Source: a virus
Taxonomy: Duplodnaviria; Heunggongvirae; Uroviricota; Caudoviricetes
DNA length: 27,930 bases
Virus record (IMG/VR): IMGVR_UViG_2529292904_000023
Strand: one strand, 5' to 3'
Made by a program: the position numbers and the translations under genes. Numbering within the stretch: position 1 is the stretch's first letter; the number at the start of each line of letters is the position of its first letter. Shown here piece by piece: positions 9,359-24,921 of the stretch. Under the pieces are notes generated by a model. The model made no database searches, had not been told where the DNA came from, and saw only the letters and a list, made by a program, of their open reading frames with translations.

Positions 9359-10051
9359 TTAATTGTGTCGCTTAAGGGTTTGTGACTGACTGATTAAGAC
9401 CTTTCCAAAGACCATAAACCGATGTTCGTTTTCGCTGGTAATTCCCCATTCGCGGTAAATCTGATTATCAGAAATTACCAGCAGTTTATCAGGTATCATT
9501 TGCAGTCGTTTGACGTAAATTTTATCATCAAAACCAAATACATATATACCATCCCCATCAAACTGATTGATACTGATATCAACGAAGATGAGATCTCCTG
9601 GCTCAATGGTTGGACACATACTGTCCCCACGAACGTTGATAACTTTAATGTGATTTGCTGGTCGTCCACCAAACATCGATACAGCATTATCAGTTCTGTA
9701 TTCAATGGCATGAATCACATCAATGACATCACCGCCCTGGATAAGGCCATTTCCCGCACTGGCACTGACATCCAGCATTTCAATACGGAATACATCCTTC
9801 ACCTGCGCAACATCCTCACTAATACTGTTTTTACATACAGTATTACTTTTGAGGTCTGAGGTAAAGAGATCAGCAATATCAACACCTAAGCTCCTGGCAA
9901 TATTACTCAGGGCTTGTTCAGTGAATTGTTTCTGCTTACCTGTTTCGAGGCGCGAGATATTCGCCGCATCCACTCCTATTGCTTCAGCGAGATCGGCGAT
10001 TTTCATGTTCTTCGCCTGGCGAAGTTGTCTGACTCGATTTCCTATGTTCAT
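9359..10051 (-). CDS. cI: CI-type prophage repressor, HTH plus LexA-like S24 autopeptidase
   Basis: N-terminal HTH (QAKNMKIADLAEAIGVDAANISRLETG); Ala-Gly cleavage site (SASAG); S24 motifs VRGDSMCPTI and KRL. Confidence 0.85.
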   Translation of the reverse strand: MNIGNRVRQLRQAKNMKIADLAEAIGVDAANISRLETGKQKQFTEQALSNIARSLGVDIADLFTSDLKSNTVCKNSISEDVAQVKDVFRIEMLDVSASAGNGLIQGGDVIDVIHAIEYRTDNAVSMFGGRPANHIKVINVRGDSMCPTIEPGDLIFVDISINQFDGDGIYVFGFDDKIYVKRLQMIPDKLLVISDNQIYREWGITSENEHRFMVFGKVLISQSQTLKRHN

Positions 10052-10409: not shown

Positions 10410-10953
10410 GCATCACTGGAAAGTGGAAAAACAACCTGAGTGGTACGTGAAAGCTGTCAGAAAAACTATCGCGGCGTTGCCGGGAGGTTACGCTGAAGCT
10501 GCTGAGTGGCTGGATGTAACAGAGAACGCTTTATTCAACCGCCTTCGTGCAGATGGCGATCAGATTTTCCCGCTGGGATGGGCAATGATTTTACAGCGCG
10601 CGGCTGGCACTCACTACATTGCGGATGCTGTCGCACAGTCTGCTGGTGGGGTGTTTGTATCGCTTCCTGAAATTGAGGAAGTAGAGAACGCCGATATAAA
10701 CCAGCGCCTGCTGGAAGCCATCGAACAGATCGGGAGTTACTCAAAGCAGATTCGTTCGGCAATCGAAGATGGGGTCGTGGAGCCACACGAGCAGACAGCA
10801 ATTAATGATGAGTTGTATCTGTCAATTTCGAAGCTCCAGGAGCATGCAGCACTGGTCTACAAAATCTTTTGCGCTCCAGAAAAGAGTGACGCCCGCGAGT
10901 GTGCAGCTCCGGGCGTCGTGGCGTTTTGTGTCTGTGGAGAAACTAACGCATGA
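10402..10953 (+). CDS. CII-like regulatory protein (phage 186 CII / CP76-type), tentative
   Basis: 183 aa immediately after cro, GTG start with CAGGAGG Shine-Dalgarno; resemblance to CP76-type regulators is from memory. Confidence 0.4.
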   Translation: MGKHHWKVEKQPEWYVKAVRKTIAALPGGYAEAAEWLDVTENALFNRLRADGDQIFPLGWAMILQRAAGTHYIADAVAQSAGGVFVSLPEIEEVENADINQRLLEAIEQIGSYSKQIRSAIEDGVVEPHEQTAINDELYLSISKLQEHAALVYKIFCAPEKSDARECAAPGVVAFCVCGETNA

Positions 10954-11549
10954 ACAGTTTAACGGCAAATAACCGTTTGTCGCAACAGCTGGTGGTCAGC
11001 GTCGCTGAACACCTGTTGTTACGGCATGAATGCAGATTACCAAATCACCTGGCTGTAAGTAACCACAGAGAACTTTACCTGACTGTGGGGGGCGAGTTGT
11101 GCAGGAACTTAACCGCTGGTTTCGTGACGGAAGAGGGCTTTATGTCCATGTTATTCGTTGGGAGCCAGAAACACAGCGCGTTATCTATCTTCGCAAAGAC
11201 TACCCGCATGAGTGCTTTAGTCCTTTGTGGAAATTCAGGCGTGATTTTGTTGAGTGTGAAGGACCACCAGCATATTGATTCTGCAATTCCGGGACGTTAC
11301 ACTGCTCAGGCACCTTATAAAGCGGGTGCCGGGATTGGCGTCCTGAAATTCGCACATGCGCATAACCGCGCTTCAGCGGTTTTTTTGCGCACGTTTCCTC
11401 ACATCCAAATTATGGTGGGGCGTGCAGGGGCATCGAAAGATGCGCCGGGGTCATGTGCGACCGGTTACGCCAACCCTGTACGTCTCACCACCTCTGTGAT
11501 TGGCGTCCCATGTGGTGAGTTTTCAAAATTCGCACATGAGGATGTCACT

Positions 11550-12095
11550 ATGGCAACCACCCCTACCCAAACTCACCCTAAAATTGATGTTATCCATGGG
11601 AAGGCTGTTACCTCTTCTTTGGCCGTTGCCGAATATTTCTGCAAGCAGCACAAAAACGTTATTCAAAAAATCCAGACGCTTGAGTGCTCTGTTGAATTCA
11701 CTGAGCTGAATTTTCAGCCCAGTGATTACACCGATTGCACAGGCCGCAAACTCCCTTGTTACCAAATCACCCGCGACGGTTTTGCGTTTCTTGCCATGGG
11801 CTTCACGGGTAAACGTGCTGCCCAGTTCAAAGAGGCATACATCAATGCCTTTAACCAGATGGAGAAACAGCTTTCAAATCCCTCTGTACTGAGCGACGTT
11901 GCACATAACGCCAGCGTTCTCTATTCCTACATTTCATCAATTCATCAGGTCTGGCTGCAGCAGCTTTATCCTATGTTGGCAAAAGCCGAATCTCCGCTGG
12001 CTGTTAGCTTGTATGACTATATTAATGATGCTTCGGCACTGGCCTGCCTCATAAATTTGTCGCTGAACCCTTCAGAGGTAAGGGGGCGCAAATGA
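11550..12095 (+). CDS. rha: Rha-family phage regulatory protein
   Basis: KAVTSSLAVAEYFCKQHKNVIQKIQTL...YQITRDGFAFLAMGFTGKRAAQFKEAYINAFNQME; start ATG 11550 with GAGGA Shine-Dalgarno; the 600-nt upstream extension in the track is not accepted as part of this gene. Confidence 0.7.
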   Translation: MATTPTQTHPKIDVIHGKAVTSSLAVAEYFCKQHKNVIQKIQTLECSVEFTELNFQPSDYTDCTGRKLPCYQITRDGFAFLAMGFTGKRAAQFKEAYINAFNQMEKQLSNPSVLSDVAHNASVLYSYISSIHQVWLQQLYPMLAKAESPLAVSLYDYINDASALACLINLSLNPSEVRGRK

Positions 12096-15823: not shown

Positions 15824-16819
15824 GTGACCGTGAGAGCACTACTGACCCCTGAAATTGCCCCGCGTATGGGGATCGTATTGTTCAGACCAGGTTCAGAGCT
15901 GATGCCCCTGTTTATGCAGGGGCGTGTCCTGCTGGAGCCTGAGCCGGAACGTTATTCATCTTTCGCCAGTGGTGCCGTTCCGGCGGCATCACAACCGCTG
16001 GCGGATGATCCTGCCGTTCGGGCCGTGTTCCGCAATGATGCAGTGATCCGTCGTGCTGGTGGCGTGGAATGTCTTGAACGCTGGTTACTTCGTGAAAAAG
16101 GTTGCCAGTGGCCTCATTCCGACTGGCACAGCGAGAACATGACCACAATGCGACACTCGCCGGGCGCAATCCGTCTGTGCTGGCACTGCGATAACCAGCT
16201 GCGCGATCAGTTCACGGAACGGCTGGAATCAATGGCAACGGATAACTGTACCCGCTGGGTGTTGTCTGTTGTGCGTCGGGATCTCGGTTTTGATGACAGT
16301 CACGTTGTGACAATGCCGGAACTGTGCTGGTGGCTGATTCGTAATGACCTGGCGGATGCCTTACCGGAAAGTGCAGCCCGTAAGGCACTGAGATTACCGA
16401 AGCCTGTTGTGCCGTCTGTCACCCGGGAAAGTGACCTTGTGCCTTCGGTTCCTGCCACCAGCATCATCCAGGATAAAGCGAAAAAGGTGCTGGCGCTGAA
16501 AGTGGATCCGGAGTCGCCGGAGTCTTTTATGTTACGCCCAAAACGTCGCCGCTGGGTTAATGAAAAGTACACGCGCTGGGTTAAGACACAGCCGTGTGCA
16601 TGTTGTGGAAAGCCCGCTGATGATCCCCACCACCTGATAGGCCACGGTCAGTGTGGAATGGGTACAAAAGCGCATGACCTTTTTGTGTTGCCTTTGTGCA
16701 GAAAGCATCACGACGAGCTGCATGCGGATACCGTGGCATTTGAAGAGAAGTATGGCTCTCAGCTGGAGCTGATATTTCGTTTTATCGATCGTGCGCTGGC
16801 AATTGGCGTACTGGCGTAA
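15824..16819 (+). CDS. DUF968-like protein with a C-terminal HNH/zinc-finger-like motif
   Basis: C-terminal CACCGKPADDPHHLIGHG...CRKHHDELH; GTG start at 15824 or 15830. Confidence 0.55.
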   Translation: MTVRALLTPEIAPRMGIVLFRPGSELMPLFMQGRVLLEPEPERYSSFASGAVPAASQPLADDPAVRAVFRNDAVIRRAGGVECLERWLLREKGCQWPHSDWHSENMTTMRHSPGAIRLCWHCDNQLRDQFTERLESMATDNCTRWVLSVVRRDLGFDDSHVVTMPELCWWLIRNDLADALPESAARKALRLPKPVVPSVTRESDLVPSVPATSIIQDKAKKVLALKVDPESPESFMLRPKRRRWVNEKYTRWVKTQPCACCGKPADDPHHLIGHGQCGMGTKAHDLFVLPLCRKHHDELHADTVAFEEKYGSQLELIFRFIDRALAIGVLA

Positions 16820-16832
16820 GTGGAGAACGAGC

Positions 16833-17585
16833 ATGAACCTTGAAGCCTTACCGAAATATTACTCCCCGAAATCTCCAAAACTGAGCGATGACGCACCGGC
16901 GACAGGCTCTGGTGGTTTAACAATTACGGATGTGATGGCTGCGCAGGGGATGGTGCAGTCAAAAGCACCGCTTGGGTTTGCTTTATTCCTGGCAAAAGTT
17001 GGTGTTCAGGATCCTCAGTTTGCGATTGAAGGTCTGCTCAATTACGCGATGGCACTGGATAACCCGACATTGAATAAATTGAGTGAAGAAACCCGGCTAC
17101 AGATCATTCCTTACCTTGTGAATTTTGCCTTTGCTGATTATTCCAGGTCTGCGGCAAGTAAGGCTCGCTGTGAGCATTGTGCTGGTACTGGATTTCATAA
17201 TGTATTGCGCGAGGTGGTGAAACACTCCAGAAGCGGGGAATCTGTTATTAAGGAAGAGTGGGTGAAGGAACTATGTCAGCATTGTCATGGTAAGGGAGAA
17301 GTCAGCACAGCATGCAGAGGGTGCAAGGGTAAAGGTATTGTCCTGGATGAAAAAAGAACCCGGCTTCATGGCACACCTGTTTATAAGGTTTGTGGGCGTT
17401 GCAATGGAAACCGGTTTAGCAGTTTACCAACCACACTGGCGCGGCTTCATGTCCAGAAGCTGGTACCAGACCTGACGGATTATCAGTGGTACAAAGGATA
17501 TGCAGATGTCATTGATAAACTGGTTACAAAGTGCTGGCAGGAAGAAGCATATGCAGAGATACAATTGAGAAAGGTGACAAGATAA
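16833..17585 (+). CDS. Q: Late-gene antiterminator Q (phage 82 / QuuQ-like type)
   Basis: 250 aa directly upstream of the pR'/tR' candidate and the tRNA island; four Cys-x2-Cys pairs (CEHC, CQHC, CRGC, CGRC); GGAGA Shine-Dalgarno. Confidence 0.6.
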   Translation: MNLEALPKYYSPKSPKLSDDAPATGSGGLTITDVMAAQGMVQSKAPLGFALFLAKVGVQDPQFAIEGLLNYAMALDNPTLNKLSEETRLQIIPYLVNFAFADYSRSAASKARCEHCAGTGFHNVLREVVKHSRSGESVIKEEWVKELCQHCHGKGEVSTACRGCKGKGIVLDEKRTRLHGTPVYKVCGRCNGNRFSSLPTTLARLHVQKLVPDLTDYQWYKGYADVIDKLVTKCWQEEAYAEIQLRKVTR

Positions 17586-18087: not shown

Positions 18088-18163
18088 GGCCCTTTAGCTC
18101 AGTGGTGAGAGCGAGCGACTCATAATCGCCAGGTCGCTGGTTCAAATCCAGCAAGGGCCACCA
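18088..18163 (+). tRNA. tRNA with CAU anticodon (Ile2/Met type, ileZ-like)
   Basis: Cloverleaf folded by hand: 7-bp acceptor stem, GCTC/GAGC D-stem, anticodon loop CTCATAA, T-loop TTCAAAT, encoded CCA. Confidence 0.85.
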
Positions 18164-18172
18164 TATCACATA

Positions 18173-18249
18173 CCGCCATTAGCTCATCGGGATAGAGCGT
18201 CAGCCTTCGAAGCTGGCTGTGCGGGGTTCAAGTCCCCGATGGCGGTCCA
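18173..18249 (+). tRNA. tRNA-Arg (anticodon UCG)
   Basis: Acceptor CCGCCAT/ATGGCGG, anticodon loop CTTCGAA, T-arm CGGGG-TTCAAGT-CCCCG, encoded CCA. Confidence 0.8.
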
Positions 18250-18262
18250 TTATCAGCATCAT

Positions 18263-18339
18263 GCGTTGTTAGCTCAGCCGGACAGAGCAATTGCCTTCTA
18301 AGCAATCGGTCACTGGTTCGAATCCAGTACAACGCGCCA
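18263..18339 (+). tRNA. tRNA-Arg (anticodon UCU)
   Basis: Acceptor GCGTTGT/ACAACGC, anticodon loop CTTCTAA, T-loop TTCGAAT, encoded CCA. Confidence 0.85.
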
Positions 18340-18626
18340 CACCACACTTATCTGCCCTGACTCTCTTTTGCGGGCTTTTTATTACAGGAAAGACACCGGA
18401 CAGTGAAATGTTAAATGCCTCACAATTCAGGTAGTCGACTGTTGCCTGACATGCTGAGCGTTTGTTAAAAAAATCCTGCATGATGAATCCCCCTGGGCGG
18501 CGGGGCATAATGACAGATGTTTGGTTGCGTATTGTATAGGCAAGTTGCGGATTCTGTCTGGTCATTGCAGAATTCACCGGGAGGCACCCGGCATCATGCT
18601 GTATACAGAGATTAGGCATATATCCA

Positions 18627-18652
18627 GGCTCCTCATCGCAGGAGCCTTTTTA
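18627..18652 (+). terminator. Rho-independent terminator
   Basis: GGCTCCT-catcgc-AGGAGCC followed by TTTTT. Confidence 0.6.
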
Positions 18653-18656
18653 CATG

Positions 18657-18682
18657 CAAAAAAAGCCCGAGTAGGTTCGGGC
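18657..18682 (-). terminator. Convergent minus-strand terminator
   Basis: A-run then GCCCGA-gtaggt-TCGGGC; reads as hairpin plus T-run on the minus strand. Confidence 0.5.
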
Positions 18683-18864
18683 AACAGCATGAGATACTTG
18701 CATTGTCATTTTTATCGTGTGGATTTTAACCAGGGTTTATCAGGCTGCGCAACTGCGTGGCCTTTTTTCATTTCTTGGGCTGTAGTCCCCGTGTGTCATT
18801 CAGGCTTCCGGACTACAGCCCACTCCATATCTGATTTAATACACTATCCCGGCCGGGAGGAATA

Positions 18865-20718
18865 ATGACATTTAAACATTATGATGTTGTCAGGGCGGCG
18901 TCGCCGTCAGACCTTGCGGAAAAGCTGACACACAAACTGAAAGAGGGCTGGCAGCCGTTTGGTAGTCCGGTGGCCATAACCCCTTATACCCTGATGCAGG
19001 CGATTACAGCAGAAGGTGATGTGATGGTCAGTGGTGCAACTGAGCCGGATTGGTACTACGTCATCGTACTGGCCGGGCAGTCCAATGCCATGGCTTACGG
19101 TGAAGGGCTTCCGCTTCCGGATTCATACGATGCGCCCCATCCGCGCATTAAGCAACTGGCCCGTCGTAACACAGTGACTCCCGGTGGTGAAGTATGCGTA
19201 TTTAACGACATCATTCCTGCTGACCATTGTCTGCATGATGTTCAGGATATGAGTACGATTAACCATCCCCGGGCTGACCTGAGCAAAGGGCAGTACGGCT
19301 GTGTCGGACAGGGCTTACATATTGCCAAAAAACTGCTTCCGTATATCCCTAATAATGCGGGGATCCTGCTGGTACCATGCTGTCGTGGTGGTTCGGCATT
19401 CACCCAGGGCACGGAGGGGACATTCAGCGAGTCCACGGGGGCCAGTCAGGATTCGGCTCGCTGGGGAGTGGGTAAGCCGTTATATCAGGATCTGCTTTTC
19501 CGCACGAAGGCAGCATTGCAGAAAAACCCGAAAAACGTTTTGCTGGCGATATGCTGGATGCAGGGGGAATTCGATATGACGAATGCCAGTTACGCCCAGC
19601 AGCCAGCAGCATTTCTTGCAATGGTACAGCAGTTCCGTGCTGACCTTGCCGGGCTGGCGGCGCAGTGTCACGGTGGAAGTCCGGCATCAGTCCCCTGGAT
19701 TTGTGGCGACACGACATACGCGTGGAAACAAGAACACGGTACGCAATATGAAGTGGTATATGGTGCATATAAAGGTAAAGAATCCCAGCAGATTTATTTT
19801 GTTCCCTTTATGACCGATGGTAGCGGAGTTAATACACCGACAAACAACCCGTCAGAAGATCCTGATATTGTCGGGTCTGGTTATTACGGTTCGGCATCCC
19901 GAACGAACAAAAACTGGGTATCATCAAATCGCCCGACGCATTTCAGCTCATGGGCGCGTCGTGGCATTATTCCCGATCGTATGGCAACCGCTATTCTGAA
20001 CGCAGCCGGGCGCACCTCAGCCTTCATCAGTGGTAAGGCACCGGAAATCAAACCCTCGCCCGGCGGCGACACGCCATCGGGTCCGTCTACAGATACGTCC
20101 GTTCGCACAATCTCCCTGCTGCCGACAGCCGGAGAGGCTGCTGCGCAGGGCTGGACCATTAAGGACGGCGGAATTCAGTTGTCGGGTGGTGTATTTAAGA
20201 TCGCCAAGCAGAGCAATAAAACCTGGTCCCTGACGCGCCCGGTGGATGACGCAGTCTCCCTGCTGACACGGGGTGGCAGACTGAGCTGTAAGTTTCGACT
20301 GTCAGGCGCACTGACCAACAATCAGTTCGGTCTGGGAATTTATCTGTATACCGATGTAGCGTTACCTGACGTCGTGGCGATGACGGGTACCGGTAACCCG
20401 TTCCTGATGTCGTTCTTCACCCAGACCACAGACGGCAAACTGAATCTGATGCATCACAAGAAAGCAGGAAACACAAAGTTGGGCGAGTTCGGGAATTACA
20501 GTAACGACTGGCAGACGCTGGAGCTGGTGTTCACCGCCGGCAGTGCCACGGTTACTCCGAAACTGAATGGAGTGGCTGGCCCGGCATTCCAGGTCATAAA
20601 AGACAGTCTGACACTGGGGCTGAATGCGCTGACGCTGACGGATATTACCAAAAATGCAGCGTATGGCGTTGAGATAGAAAGTCTGGTGCTGGAGATAAAT
20701 GCACCGGCATCATCATAA
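18865..20718 (+). CDS. nanS-p: NanS-p-type sialate O-acetylesterase (SGNH/DUF303 esterase with C-terminal extension)
   Basis: VIVLAGQSNAMAYGEG catalytic-serine motif; 617 aa; occupies the position downstream of the tRNA island where Stx phages carry the homolog; GGGAGGA Shine-Dalgarno. Confidence 0.8.
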   Translation: MTFKHYDVVRAASPSDLAEKLTHKLKEGWQPFGSPVAITPYTLMQAITAEGDVMVSGATEPDWYYVIVLAGQSNAMAYGEGLPLPDSYDAPHPRIKQLARRNTVTPGGEVCVFNDIIPADHCLHDVQDMSTINHPRADLSKGQYGCVGQGLHIAKKLLPYIPNNAGILLVPCCRGGSAFTQGTEGTFSESTGASQDSARWGVGKPLYQDLLFRTKAALQKNPKNVLLAICWMQGEFDMTNASYAQQPAAFLAMVQQFRADLAGLAAQCHGGSPASVPWICGDTTYAWKQEHGTQYEVVYGAYKGKESQQIYFVPFMTDGSGVNTPTNNPSEDPDIVGSGYYGSASRTNKNWVSSNRPTHFSSWARRGIIPDRMATAILNAAGRTSAFISGKAPEIKPSPGGDTPSGPSTDTSVRTISLLPTAGEAAAQGWTIKDGGIQLSGGVFKIAKQSNKTWSLTRPVDDAVSLLTRGGRLSCKFRLSGALTNNQFGLGIYLYTDVALPDVVAMTGTGNPFLMSFFTQTTDGKLNLMHHKKAGNTKLGEFGNYSNDWQTLELVFTAGSATVTPKLNGVAGPAFQVIKDSLTLGLNALTLTDITKNAAYGVEIESLVLEINAPASS

Positions 20719-20868
20719 AAAGTGAGCCAGTCAAATGGAAGGTATCGTTAAACTCACCGGTAGTGTCAGTGGGTCGTCTGAGATGCCTGCATGAGTTATC
20801 AGAGCCATCAGTACTTAACTGGTGGCTTTTTTTATTGTTGTCAGCTTCCGGATAACGGGAGACGGGGT

Positions 20869-21084
20869 ATGTACCAGATGGAAAAAATCACAACAGGTGT
20901 GTCATACACCACGTCAGCGGTGGGAACGGGCTACTGGTTCCTGCAGTTGCTGGACAGGGTTTCCCCGTCTCAGTGGGCGGCAATAGGCGTGCTGGGAAGT
21001 CTGCTGTTTGGGCTGCTGACATATCTGACTAACCTGTATTTCAAAATCAGAGAGGACCGGCGTAAGGCCGCCCGGGGAGAGTGA
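20869..21084 (+). CDS. S: Phage-21-type class II holin (pinholin) with a dual start
   Basis: 71 aa, MYQMEKITT... with Met1/Met4 dual-start motif; two TM segments; C-terminal [14 protein letters not shown]; GGGAGA Shine-Dalgarno. Confidence 0.85.
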
Positions 21085-21087
21085 ATA

Positions 21088-21645
21088 ATGAACCATGAAG
21101 AAATGAATCAGCGCTTCAGTCGCCTGGAAAATGAAATTGCTGAACTGAATAAAAAACTGTCGACGCTGATGCATTCTGAAGATGAAAAAAAACGCCGCGA
21201 TGAGCAGTTTGCTGCGTTTGACGATTATTGTCGGAAAGTGATGAGCAAAAATCTCGCAGAGTGTTTCAGTATTCATAATGATAATTTCAGTGAGCTGGAA
21301 TGGGAGTGTAACCGGCCATCCTTTGTTGTATCCGGTGATGCCGGGAAAATAACCATCTCAGAAAATGGGAAAGTAACACCTCCATCGCACCAGCACAGTG
21401 AGGAGCTCATTGAATTTGCCATTGATTACCTGAAGAACAATAAAAAGCAGGGGCTGATGAAGCGCGTTGGCCGTTGCATGGGATATCTTCAGGTAGCCGC
21501 TGAGATTGAAGCGCTGGCCAGTGGTGCTGATAAGGATGCAATTGTGCGGGAGGCTCTTCTTCGTGATTTTAATACTCCACCCTTTAAAAAAGTGCCGGCT
21601 TACTGGCTTCATCCGGGGCTGACTTATCTTAAAGTGCGTATTTAG
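21088..21645 (+). CDS. Hypothetical 185-aa protein inserted between holin and endolysin
   Basis: ORF 3 nt after the holin stop; N-terminal heptad-like segment (LENEIAELNKKLSTL); no TM segment or recognised motif. Confidence 0.5.
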   Translation: MNHEEMNQRFSRLENEIAELNKKLSTLMHSEDEKKRRDEQFAAFDDYCRKVMSKNLAECFSIHNDNFSELEWECNRPSFVVSGDAGKITISENGKVTPPSHQHSEELIEFAIDYLKNNKKQGLMKRVGRCMGYLQVAAEIEALASGADKDAIVREALLRDFNTPPFKKVPAYWLHPGLTYLKVRI

Positions 21646-21681: not shown

Positions 21682-22215
21682 ATGAACACCAAAATCAAAT
21701 ACGGCCTGTCGGCTGCCGTTCTGGCGCTGATTGCCGCTGGTGCGTCTGCGCCTGACATTCTCGACCAGTTTCTGGATGAAAAGGAAGGCAATCACACCAC
21801 GGCATACCGTGATGGTGCAGGTATCTGGACCATCTGCCGTGGTGCCATCATGGTGGATGGCAAACCTGTCGTTCCGGGCATGAAGTTGTCGAAGGAAAAA
21901 TGCGACCAGGTTAACGCCATTGAGCGTGATAAAGCGCTGGCGTGGGTGGAGAAAAACATCAAAGTGCCATTGAGCGAACCCCAGAAAGCGGGGATCGCGT
22001 CATTCTGTCCGTACAACATTGGTCCCGGTAAGTGTTTCCCGTCGACGTTTTATAAACGAATTAATGCAGGTGATCGCAGGGGAGCGTGTGAGGCGATTCG
22101 CTGGTGGATTAAGGACGGTGGCAGAGACTGCCGTATTCGTTCAAACAACTGCTACGGTCAGGTATCCCGTCGTGACCAGGAGAGCGCGCTGGCGTGCTGG
22201 GGTATCGACAGATAA
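21682..22215 (+). CDS. R: SAR endolysin (T4-lysozyme-like)
   Basis: Weakly hydrophobic Gly/Ala-rich N-terminus (GLSAAVLALIAAGASA); catalytic E-x8-D-x5-T pattern (EGNHTTAYRDGAGIWTICRG). Confidence 0.8.
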   Translation: MNTKIKYGLSAAVLALIAAGASAPDILDQFLDEKEGNHTTAYRDGAGIWTICRGAIMVDGKPVVPGMKLSKEKCDQVNAIERDKALAWVEKNIKVPLSEPQKAGIASFCPYNIGPGKCFPSTFYKRINAGDRRGACEAIRWWIKDGGRDCRIRSNNCYGQVSRRDQESALACWGIDR

Positions 22216-22513: not shown

Positions 22514-22978
22514 ATGAACCGCGTACTGTGCGTGGTCATCATTGCCCTGCTGGTGGCCTGTGGTGCGCTTAGTCTGGGGCTGAATCATTACCGTGATAAC
22601 GCCATTACCTACAAAGCCCAGCGCGACAAAAATGTCAGAGAACTGAAGCTGGCGAACGCGGCAATTACTGACATGCAGATGCGTCAGCGTGATGTTGCTG
22701 CGCTCGATGCAAAATACACGAAGGAGTTAGCTGATGCGAAAGCTGAAAATGATGCTCTGCGTGATGATGTTGCCGCTGGTCGTCGTCGGTTGCACATCAA
22801 AGCAGTCTGTCAGTCAGTGCGTGAAGCCACCACCGCCTCCGGCGTGGATAATGCAGCCTCCCCCCGACTGGCAGACACCGCTGAACGGGATTATTTCACC
22901 CTCAGAGCGCGACTGATAATAATGCAAAAACAACTTGAAGGGGCACAGCTATACATTCGAGAGCAATGCCTCAGATAA
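22514..22978 (+). CDS. Rz: Rz i-spanin
   Basis: N-terminal TM anchor, coiled-coil periplasmic domain, 154 aa, Rz1 embedded in the +1 frame. Confidence 0.8.
22734..22916 (+). CDS. Rz1: Rz1 o-spanin lipoprotein
   Basis: Lipobox LVVVGC, proline-rich (PPPPP), 60 aa, fully embedded in Rz. Confidence 0.75.
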
Positions 22979-23285
22979 AAACCGGCCAAGGATAATCCGC
23001 TGAAGATTCGCCGGTGGCTAAAGTGTGCCAAGAGTTCAATTTACGCAATTACTCCAGTCGATGCTATGCACCGTCTTTGTGAAGTCAATGGATACCTGAT
23101 TTATTTCTGTGCGCTGTATCGTCGCTGTACTCTTGCATTAATTATGACTGTAGCCTGACGGGGAACTCCTTCTGCACAAGTGTGGGGGAATAATCAAAAA
23201 CGATGCACACCGGGGTTACCGGGTACACATATTTCATCATGCCAGCGAGTCCGGTTCTGGCACGGAAGAAACCGGACGTTATGAT

Positions 23286-23711
23286 TTAGTGCGGAAATAT
23301 TTGTGTAGTGTTCTGAATGTTCTCAGTAAAGAGTAATGAATTATCAAAGGTATAGTAATACCTTTTGTTTTCGTGGATATTTGTAATCCATCTGAAAACC
23401 CCTGCTGTAGCAAGATTTTTCCTGTATTCGTAAAATGATAACTCTCCTGATTTGAATCCTTTTAAGGTGGCTTCTATAAGGCATTTATTTTTTGAAAATC
23501 TTACATTTACAACCTTACCCTGTCCTTTTATTAAAACCGTATTATCGTTTTCAAGAACAAGATGAATATTCTCTGTGGCTAAATAGTAAATGTAATGTGA
23601 GACATTGTGACGTTTTAGTTCAGAATAAAACCAGTGATAGTTTAAATTATTTCGCACTTTATCGAATATTTGTTTAAAAATGGCAACCTGAGCCATTGTA
23701 GTACCTTCCAT
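23286..23711 (-). CDS. AT-rich hypothetical protein, possibly DUF1398 (YbcV/YdfO-like)
   Basis: Antisense to the late operon, downstream of Rz, as for ybcV in DLP12; family call is from memory of synteny, not sequence. Confidence 0.4.
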
Positions 23712-23753
23712 GTGATATGAGGGGGCGTAGTCTGCACGATTATCTAAATTGCT

Positions 23754-23987
23754 TCAATCTGGTCTGACCTGTTTTCTGAGCAATTCAGTAATGTCACTCT
23801 TTTCTTTGTTTGCTTCAGGCGAAACTCTTTTTACTGAGCACAGTCTCCGACGGCAGGCTTCAATGACCCAGGCTGAGAAATTCCCAGACCCTTTTTGCTC
23901 AAGAGCGATGTTAATTTGTTCAATCATTTGGTTAGGAAAGCGGATGTTGCGGGTTGTTGTTCTGCGGGTTCTGTTCTTCGTTGACAT
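23754..23987 (-). CDS. Small ribbon-helix-helix-like DNA-binding protein (YlcI/DUF3950-like?)
   Basis: Basic N-terminus, then IRFPNQMIEQINIALEQKGSGNFSAWVIEACRRRL, compatible with a beta-strand plus two helices. Confidence 0.45.
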   Translation of the reverse strand: MSTKNRTRRTTTRNIRFPNQMIEQINIALEQKGSGNFSAWVIEACRRRLCSVKRVSPEANKEKSDITELLRKQVRPD

Positions 23988-24186
23988 GAGGTTGCCCCGT
24001 ATTCAGTGTCGCTGATTTGTATTGTCTGAAGTTGTTTTTACGTTAAGTTGACGCAGATCAATTAATACGATACCTGCGTCATAATTGATTATTTGACGTG
24101 GTTTGATGGCGTAGATGCACGTTGTGACATGTAGATGATAATTATTATCATTTTGCGGGTCCTTTCCGGCGATCCGACAGGTTACG

Positions 24187-24198
24187 GGGCGGCGACCT
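24187..24198. other. cos site, lambda-type 12-nt cohesive end GGGCGGCGACCT
   Basis: GGGCGGCGACCTCGCGCGTTTTCACTATTTATGAG closely matches the recalled lambda left end; about 215 nt upstream of Nu1. Confidence 0.6.
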
Positions 24199-24414: not shown

Positions 24415-24921
24415 ATGGCCTTTTTATTGAATAAAAGTGATATGGCCTCCTCCATCGGTATCTCTGTTCAGGCATTTGATAAATGGGGCGTTCCTCCTGT
24501 TGAACGTCGGGGGAGGGAAGTTTTATATGACGTTAAAACTGTACTGGAGATAGATCGCGAGCGGCGACAACACAATCAGAGAACACCTGATGACGGGGGA
24601 GAACTGGAGGAAAGGCTGCTTCGGGCCAGAGCTGAACTGACAGAAGAACAGGCTGTAGCTCAAAAACTTAAAAATCAGGTAACCGAAGGTAAGCTCATCG
24701 ATTCAGACTTCTGCGTTTTCGCCCTCAGCAAACTGGCGATGGCATTGTCCAGTACGCTTGATTCCATTCCGTTATCCATGCAGCGACAGTTCCCGGATTT
24801 AACGCCACGTCATATTGACCATCTGAAAACCCTTATTGCAAAGGGGGCAAATCAGTGTGCGCGGGCAGGGGATAAATTACCGGATTTACTCGATGAATAT
24901 ATCAGAGCAACAACTGAATAA
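24415..24921 (+). CDS. nu1: Terminase small subunit, Nu1-like
   Basis: Parallels the recalled lambda Nu1 (EVLYD, FCVFALSKLA, LPLSMQRQFPDL, LKTLIAKG); start ATG 24415 with GGAGAGGAG Shine-Dalgarno. Confidence 0.8.
   Translation: MAFLLNKSDMASSIGISVQAFDKWGVPPVERRGREVLYDVKTVLEIDRERRQHNQRTPDDGGELEERLLRARAELTEEQAVAQKLKNQVTEGKLIDSDFCVFALSKLAMALSSTLDSIPLSMQRQFPDLTPRHIDHLKTLIAKGANQCARAGDKLPDLLDEYIRATTE

Follow-up and report, generated by a model that had tools for sequence, protein, structure and literature searches.

A ynfO-ydfO-type pair of accessory genes antisense to the late operon of a lambdoid E. coli element

Two small genes, antisense to the late operon and placed between its lysis genes and the cohesive-end site, raise the question of whether they form a dedicated regulator-and-effector unit or are two separate accessory genes. 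The window, i.e. the whole stretch of 27,930 nt that was analysed, belongs to a lambdoid E. coli prophage or phage. It encodes an S24/HTH repressor (9359-10051), a Q antiterminator (16791-17585), three tRNAs (18088-18339, plus strand), a NanS-p-like esterase (18865-20718, plus strand), a holin (20791-21084) and a lysozyme (21682-22215). The Rz spanin gene (22514-22978, plus strand; Pfam Phage_lysis, 177.7 bits), with Rz1 embedded in it (22734-22916, plus strand), is the final late-strand gene ahead of the pair. On the other side, the cosN cohesive-end sequence GGGCGGCGACCT (24187-24198, plus strand) was read from the sequence; it is the same as the lambda left end, and the alignments showed that the lambda record ends and begins exactly at this site. 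The first late-strand gene past cos encodes the Nu1-type small terminase (24415-24921, plus strand; Pfam Phage_Nu1; start taken from a RefSeq homologue), and terminase A lies downstream in the gene order.

Some other features of the window were also recorded. The Rfam search revealed the sRNA STnc100 (18449-18657, plus strand) and the anti-GcvB sRNA AgvB (18658-18717, minus strand), which abut each other between Q and the esterase gene, just past the tRNA-Met/Arg/Arg cluster. The esterase is a 617-aa protein of the NanS-p type 9-O-acetylesterases (DUF1737, SASA esterase and DUF6645), and its gene occupies the slot used in Stx phages downstream of Q and the tRNAs. The isrK (Hfq-binding sRNA) and C4 antisense RNA families matched at 11310-11386 and 11408-11495 (plus strand) within ORF 10950-12095, the product of which is an Ash/Rha-type regulator; this looks like the P1/P7-like immunity-I RNA arrangement in a lambdoid early region. 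The gap between the holin and lysozyme genes contains a 185-aa ORF (21088-21645, plus strand) with no Pfam match; a 104-aa YdfR-family gene takes this place in the closest E. coli prophage. No Rfam family was found in the region of the gene pair.

The two minus-strand ORFs reported in the preliminary description were confirmed at 23754-23987 (77 aa) and 23286-23711 (141 aa), flanked by Rz/Rz1 and cosN, and the two families that it had named, DUF3950 and DUF1398, were also recovered by profile search. The 77-aa ORF matches DUF3950 (PF13132; E = 2.8e-21, 75.5 bits against a cut-off of 25) and the NCBIfam model YlcI_YnfO_N (NF041551; 36.7 bits against a curated cut-off of 30), and represents a ynfO/ylcI-type gene. 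The 141-aa ORF, of the ydfO/ybcV type, matches DUF1398 (PF07166; E = 3.3e-43, 147 bits against a gathering cut-off of 22), with residues 13-131 covering profile positions 1-119 of 119. The phmmer comparison of this ORF with E. coli YdfO (NMR structure PDB 2HH8) gave an E-value of 1.4e-69, and the protein has the YdfO fold, composed of two alpha-alpha-beta-beta-beta repeats. This downstream gene is AT-rich, as described before (31.7% GC, against 48.7% in the window), and the GC content of the DUF3950 gene is 44.4%. Both genes belong to the known YnfO/YlcI and YdfO/YbcV accessory families, which are present in lambda and in most E. coli; they are ordinary, and nothing in them is novel. On balance, and with modest confidence, the locus is read here as the Qin-type (ynfO-ydfO) version of the lambdoid right-end accessory region, in which two non-essential genes, each mobile without the other, lie antisense to the late operon.

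Lambda has both genes: the DUF1398 gene is p78 (47048-47452), and the homologue of DUF3950, which J02459 does not annotate, is found at about 48139-48303. The window DUF1398 protein shares 76% identity with p78; the DUF3950 protein is 94.5% identical to the lambda YlcI homologue over 55 residues, and the DNA from the DUF3950 gene start to cosN is about 95% identical. Two blocks were aligned (window 23109-23770 with lambda 46867-47527, and window 23825-24186 with lambda 48141-48502), whereas lambda 46422-46866 (bor) and 47528-48140 (613 bp; p79/ybcW and the YlcI tail) are absent from the window. In both lambda and DLP12, some 690 bp and an ORF on the opposite strand separate the two genes. The genes are adjacent in the window only because the 613-bp ybcW segment of lambda/DLP12 is missing, and the different C-terminal tail on the window domain has the same origin. 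Within 22970-23150 of the window bor is absent, and a homologue of the annotated HK630/lambda bor promoter persists at about 23119-23150 with degenerate hexamers (the -10 TACAAT changed to TACAGC). Lambda p79/ybcW is non-essential by classical data. In a CRISPRi essentiality map, lambdap79 (lambda 47738-47944; not present in the window) is given as 'essential'; since the segment is missing from the apparently intact window phage and from the Qin-type arrangement, this score is likely to be a positional effect near cos.

The first alternative is a dedicated regulator-plus-cargo operon, in which the ribbon-helix-helix (RHH) protein would autoregulate a bicistronic ynfO-ydfO transcript and specifically control a DUF1398 effector. 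This reading is unlikely, but it keeps more than a token share of our belief. The two genes are on the same strand, no terminator-like hairpin was seen in the 57-nt spacer between them (23697-23753, minus strand), inverted repeats occur upstream of the RHH gene, and the adjacent arrangement recurs in 79 of the 80 IMG/VR loci sampled and in Qin (table in PMC7660256). However, the 80 loci are all near-identical relatives and not independent evidence for pairing, and the separation in lambda also argues against an operon. Moreover, about 75 bp of DNA upstream of the DUF1398 gene travels with that gene. Among the phage records, DUF3950 was found in 155 and DUF1398 in 43, and about 110 contain DUF3950 without DUF1398; conversely, DUF1398 occurs without DUF3950 at chromosomal sites. 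For example, the Stx phages of the BP-4795 type carry DUF3950 alone, between Rz and the HNH-TerS-TerL module, 41 bp from the divergent HNH gene. In PICI-like satellites, too, DUF3950 occurs by itself. The DUF3950 and DUF1398 genes are distributed independently, and the pair is not obligate; the regulator-plus-cargo unit of the preliminary description was therefore not borne out.

The 1.3-kb region has a match in 4283 of 5426 complete E. coli genomes, with at least 80% coverage in 1171, and a near-full-length DUF1398 gene is present in 3010; the remaining genomes have weaker partial DUF1398 matches which, among those sampled, are the chromosomal paralogue ycgX. In the 60-80% identity band (2373 E. 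coli records), the best match among the records sampled is a lone DUF1398 gene in a ycgX-type chromosomal locus. Where DUF1398 has diverged (26-53% identity), its gene lies in the chromosome or in a late-strand Q-holin slot and has no DUF3950 gene nearby. A search for conserved neighbours of the distant DUF1398 genes gave only unrelated contexts (a GerE regulator, an adenosine deaminase, the end of a polyketide-type ketoacyl-synthase/ACPS cluster, and the Q-holin slot).

A wide taxonomic spread of the family was considered and rejected as an artefact of lambda DNA in unrelated assemblies. Many of the 'homologues' of both proteins in assemblies labelled as Pseudomonas, Kitasatospora, Brevibacillus, Flavobacterium, Staphylococcus, a spider and others are lambda DNA (loci L107-L143, e.g. 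L109, L111, L112, L117, L119, L120, L125, L141 and L142); they have the gene order Rz-bor-p78-ybcW-ylcI as in lambda, with Bor and YbcW at 100%. In many cases they make up whole contigs of about 3.5 kb, matching the Oxford Nanopore lambda control amplicon in size, or sit at the ends of contigs of some 48.5 kb. The real distribution of the family is the Enterobacteriaceae.

The spacer between the two genes carries a C-run of variable length (C4-C6 among relatives), and it is 57 nt long in 55 related loci and 56, 58 or 59 nt in 23. The two ORFs are in frame across one TGA, and a public 233-aa YnfO-YdfO 'fusion' (P0133, 761 members) reads this TGA as W. With such variation in the spacer, relatives do not all keep the two ORFs in a common frame; a translational read-through fusion was therefore dismissed, and the 233-aa protein is probably a gene-calling artefact. 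A promoter of the DUF3950 gene, if any, must lie within 23988-24186, which separates its start codon from cosN. This spacer contains nested inverted repeats at 24049-24089 (TGACGCAG/CTGCGTCA and ATCAATTAATACG/CGTCATAATTGAT), a candidate operator that is not common to the BP-4795-type loci. The whole of 23988-24186 is about 95% identical to the lambda right end, whereas it is unrelated to the BP-4795-type upstream DNA. No shared operator was found upstream of DUF3950 between the two types, their sole common sequence being an 11-mer on opposite strands (E = 0.017). Simple autoregulation by the DUF3950 protein is weakened by these differences. Downstream, a hairpin GTCCGGTT...AACCGGAC (23249-23277, minus strand) begins 8 nt past the DUF1398 stop codon. 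The stem is present, also in HK630, with no U-tract, and the region z-score of -0.29 is not significant; it is a possible transcript end.

The conserved domain of the DUF3950 gene comprises residues 1-48 (23844-23987, minus strand), which are nearly invariant among the homologues, whereas residues 49-77 form a variable tail. In codons 1-48, the window and phage 569R3 differ at 27 nucleotides, 23 of them at third positions, which gives 20 synonymous and 4 non-synonymous codons. By this substitution pattern, the DUF3950 gene is a genuine coding sequence with an N-terminal domain under strong purifying selection. The plus-strand ORF 23749-24015 (88 aa, TTG start) was dismissed as a true gene, because the substitutions fit the minus-strand frame. 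The family is a narrow one, with 196 representative clusters among 1.84 billion; whatever the terminase type, its gene always occupies the lysis/packaging junction. The 144-nt segment that encodes the domain was found at 9855 places in 4183 E. coli genomes, with up to 12 per genome.

This frequency and the fixed junction, together with a homology between the lambda-type and BP-4795-type loci that runs from about the DUF3950 start codon to about codon 48, might suggest that the 144-nt segment is conserved chiefly for its DNA, the protein being incidental. It would then serve to link the lysis and packaging modules of mosaic lambdoid phages in recombination, or be a cis-acting packaging-proximal site. 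The third-position bias described above argues against this. Complete but unannotated DUF3950 ORFs with 38% identity also occur in small satellite-like elements of the Klebsiella type and in Pasteurella, and these keep the protein motif IRFP...NFSxWV, not the DNA. Since the substitutions are synonymous and the distant homologues keep the motif rather than the DNA, selection acts on the DUF3950 protein, and the DNA-level explanation is improbable. The satellite ORFs (2501-2704 in locus L094 and 2501-2680 in L093; IRFPHELI...NFSxWV, Pfam 29.8-29.9 bits; vB_KppS-Ant and Pasteurella Pmp7) are each antisense to a large annotated ORF of doubtful reality (324 aa; 224 aa, 'transcriptional repressor').

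The preliminary description called the 77-aa protein RHH-like, which is plausible by topology and by the top matches, whereas no match is significant. The AF2 monomer has an extended segment at residues 14-18 and helices at 19-32 and 34-53, with a core pLDDT of about 80; no strand was called, as expected without a dimer partner. In the Foldseek search of the PDB, 10 of the 12 matches are, by our reading of the entries, RHH or RHH-like DNA binders (ParD, ArtA, TCP domains), all with E-values of at least 5.4. The sole match of the family profile among the PDB sequences is the CopG-family RHH protein 9kkd, with the whole domain aligned (hmmsearch, E = 0.6). The hhalign comparison with Arc set NIRFP on NLRWP (E = 0.005, probability 7%), and none of the Pfam RHH families matched at E-values up to 10. 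Every RHH test was below significance; these items, each of them weak, converge on a putative RHH protein as the best reading.

A more ambitious reading was also considered, in which the YlcI/YnfO domain is a trans-acting regulator shared by lambdoid prophages and satellites, and DUF1398 is an unrelated passenger. It is offered on the basis of the near-invariance of the domain, its probable DNA binding, the fixed junction, the up to 12 copies per genome and the PICI-like satellites; for the capsid-forming PICIs of Enterobacter, too, YlcI/YnfO proteins have been listed (PMC13612085). If true, one common operator might couple co-resident elements, for example by damping late or packaging expression or by helper-satellite cross-talk. 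Little credence is given to it here.

The gene for the DUF1398 protein is likely to be shorter than its ORF. The Shine-Dalgarno sequence GGAAGGT (23703-23709) is located 6 nt ahead of the second ATG (23694-23696), and in RefSeq the homologues have a length of 136 aa; the 141 aa given previously is thus correct as the ORF length, whereas the gene is probably 23286-23696 (minus strand, 136 aa). Compared with lambda p78, the differences by codon position are 23/12/34, with 20 synonymous and 33 non-synonymous codons, so that the gene is less constrained than the DUF3950 gene. The pattern of differences indicates a genuine coding sequence, with its frame under purifying selection. The amino-acid differences among the window protein, lambda p78 and YdfO cluster in window 23410-23525 (residues about 58-95), and both ends are nearly identical; the central segment may be a variable interaction surface.

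The DUF1398 fold is an orphan, for which no enzyme, defence-family or toxin-like match was found. By our reading of the sequences, neither product of the pair has a signal peptide or a membrane segment. PHROG 413 and several RefSeq phage records label DUF1398 as 'head protein', and older records as 'putative envelope protein' (lambda p78 in NC_001416, NC_019723). Both labels were rejected. The gene is antisense to the late operon and outside the head genes, no capsid structural match rose above noise, and lambda p78 is non-essential by CRISPRi (PMC10695390); the PHROG 413 head label appears to be an annotation error. An envelope protein is likewise not consistent with the antisense orientation, the non-essentiality, the YdfO fold and the lack of a membrane segment.

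A type II toxin-antitoxin or phage-exclusion module, with the RHH protein as antitoxin or repressor and the DUF1398 protein as toxin or abortive-infection effector, could be suggested by the gene order common in type II systems (a small RHH-like protein, then one of ~135 aa), a weak similarity to ParD in Foldseek and the prophage accessory slot, but it is very improbable, since the obligate adjacent pairing is lacking and DUF1398 stands alone in the ycgX-type locus, the PADLOC-DB HMMs gave nothing for DUF3950 and only Csx23 for DUF1398 (E = 0.025, below the reliable level), no toxin HMM or toxin-like fold matched DUF1398, p78 is dispensable in lambda, and PMC4077768 cites YdfO overexpression as raising resistance to oxidative stress, not as toxic. 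No report of an exclusion phenotype for either family was found in the literature. The preliminary description had itself allowed that membership of both proteins in the DLP12 families with no exclusion phenotype would speak against it; since both are ordinary members of the DLP12/Qin families and no exclusion phenotype has been reported, this is largely what was found. The toxin-antitoxin and exclusion readings are unsupported.

Several expression studies of the K-12 homologues are available. In a pdhR mutant, the ybcV/ybcW mRNA decreased about 10-fold, and PdhR gSELEX peaks were located at ybcV/ybcW and at ynfO/ydfO (PMC7660256). An imidazolium ionic liquid in exponential phase raised ydfO 12.5-fold in microarrays and 117-fold in qPCR, and the induction was transient (PMC4077768). 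The ydfO gene is also among four Qin genes that change after DicC induction (PMC11430063). As late as 2024, both ynfO and ydfO were given as uncharacterised (PMC11551758). The window contains a PdhR-box-like 17-mer AACAGGTCAGACCAGAT (23757-23773, minus strand) in the last DUF3950 codons, 61-77 nt upstream of the DUF1398 start and within the ~75 bp of lambda-homologous DNA upstream of this gene. The identical sequence is given as the site under the gSELEX peak at ynfO/ydfO of Qin (PMC7660256), and it fits 10 of the 14 consensus positions. Looser matches are expected by chance, and a consensus scan with 3 mismatches allowed gave no more than chance, so that the box was rejected as an independent statistical signal. 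The preliminary description had proposed expression in the lysogen from the genes' own promoter. Independence from the late operon fits the K-12 data (PMC7660256, PMC4077768), whereas the minus-strand DNA upstream of the two genes showed no consensus sigma-70 promoter. By analogy with these homologues, from which all the expression evidence comes, the window pair is likely expressed in the prophage state.

In the Qin-type reading that is preferred here, YnfO/YlcI would be a small RHH protein that forms a dimer and binds DNA, expressed from a host-type promoter in the prophage, where late transcription is off. It probably recognises one common operator and acts in trans, since the putative DNA-reading segment NIRFP is identical in every copy examined and the coding segment reaches 12 copies per genome. 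In the window arrangement, ynfO might be co-transcribed with the DUF1398 gene. The AT-rich DUF1398 gene would be a horizontally acquired one with its own upstream control region, including the putative PdhR-binding sequence; its product may be a cytoplasmic protein with no catalytic signature, which most likely binds a host component affecting stress physiology.

As a discovery the pair matters little, because the families are catalogued, one structure is solved, and both are present in lambda and in the K-12 cryptic prophages. What is of use is the negative result: the pair should not be taken for a candidate toxin-antitoxin module or defence module, and no support exists for naming DUF1398 a 'head protein' or 'envelope protein'. 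Mildly interesting is the 48-residue domain, which is under strong purifying selection and is found, in multiple copies, at the same junction in many lambdoid phages and satellites.

Comparison with known systems showed similarities at several levels. The DUF3950 protein shares its size and its predicted strand-helix-helix order with the RHH repressors (P22 Arc/Mnt, CopG, ParD, ArtA); its NIRFP aligns with the NLRWP of Arc, and a G-x-N/S turn precedes helix 2. Its top structure and profile matches are RHH proteins, none of them statistically significant, whereas dimerisation, DNA binding and an operator are only predicted. For bor and lom, the lysogenic-conversion morons of lambda, the promoters are mapped, and the envelope products and the phenotypes are known. 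Unlike these, the window pair has no consensus minus-strand promoter, and its products have neither signal peptide nor membrane segment. Like them, the window genes are non-essential, deviate in base composition, lie in the late region and are variably present among related phages: the GC content is 31.7% against 48.7%, DUF1398 is absent from the Stx phages, and bor and ybcW are absent here. The K-12 homologues of the window genes are also reported to be transcribed without lytic induction (PMC7660256, PMC4077768).

The lambda right end has the order bor - p78 - p79 (ybcW) - unannotated YlcI homologue - cos, and DLP12 has the same layout (borD-ybcV-ybcW-ylcI). The arrangement of ynfO-ydfO in the K-12 Qin prophage is the same as that of the window. 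The Qin YdfO differs from the window protein in the central segment; moreover, Qin is a decayed cryptic prophage, whereas the window pair is located in an apparently intact lambdoid late region with lysis genes, cos and Nu1/A.
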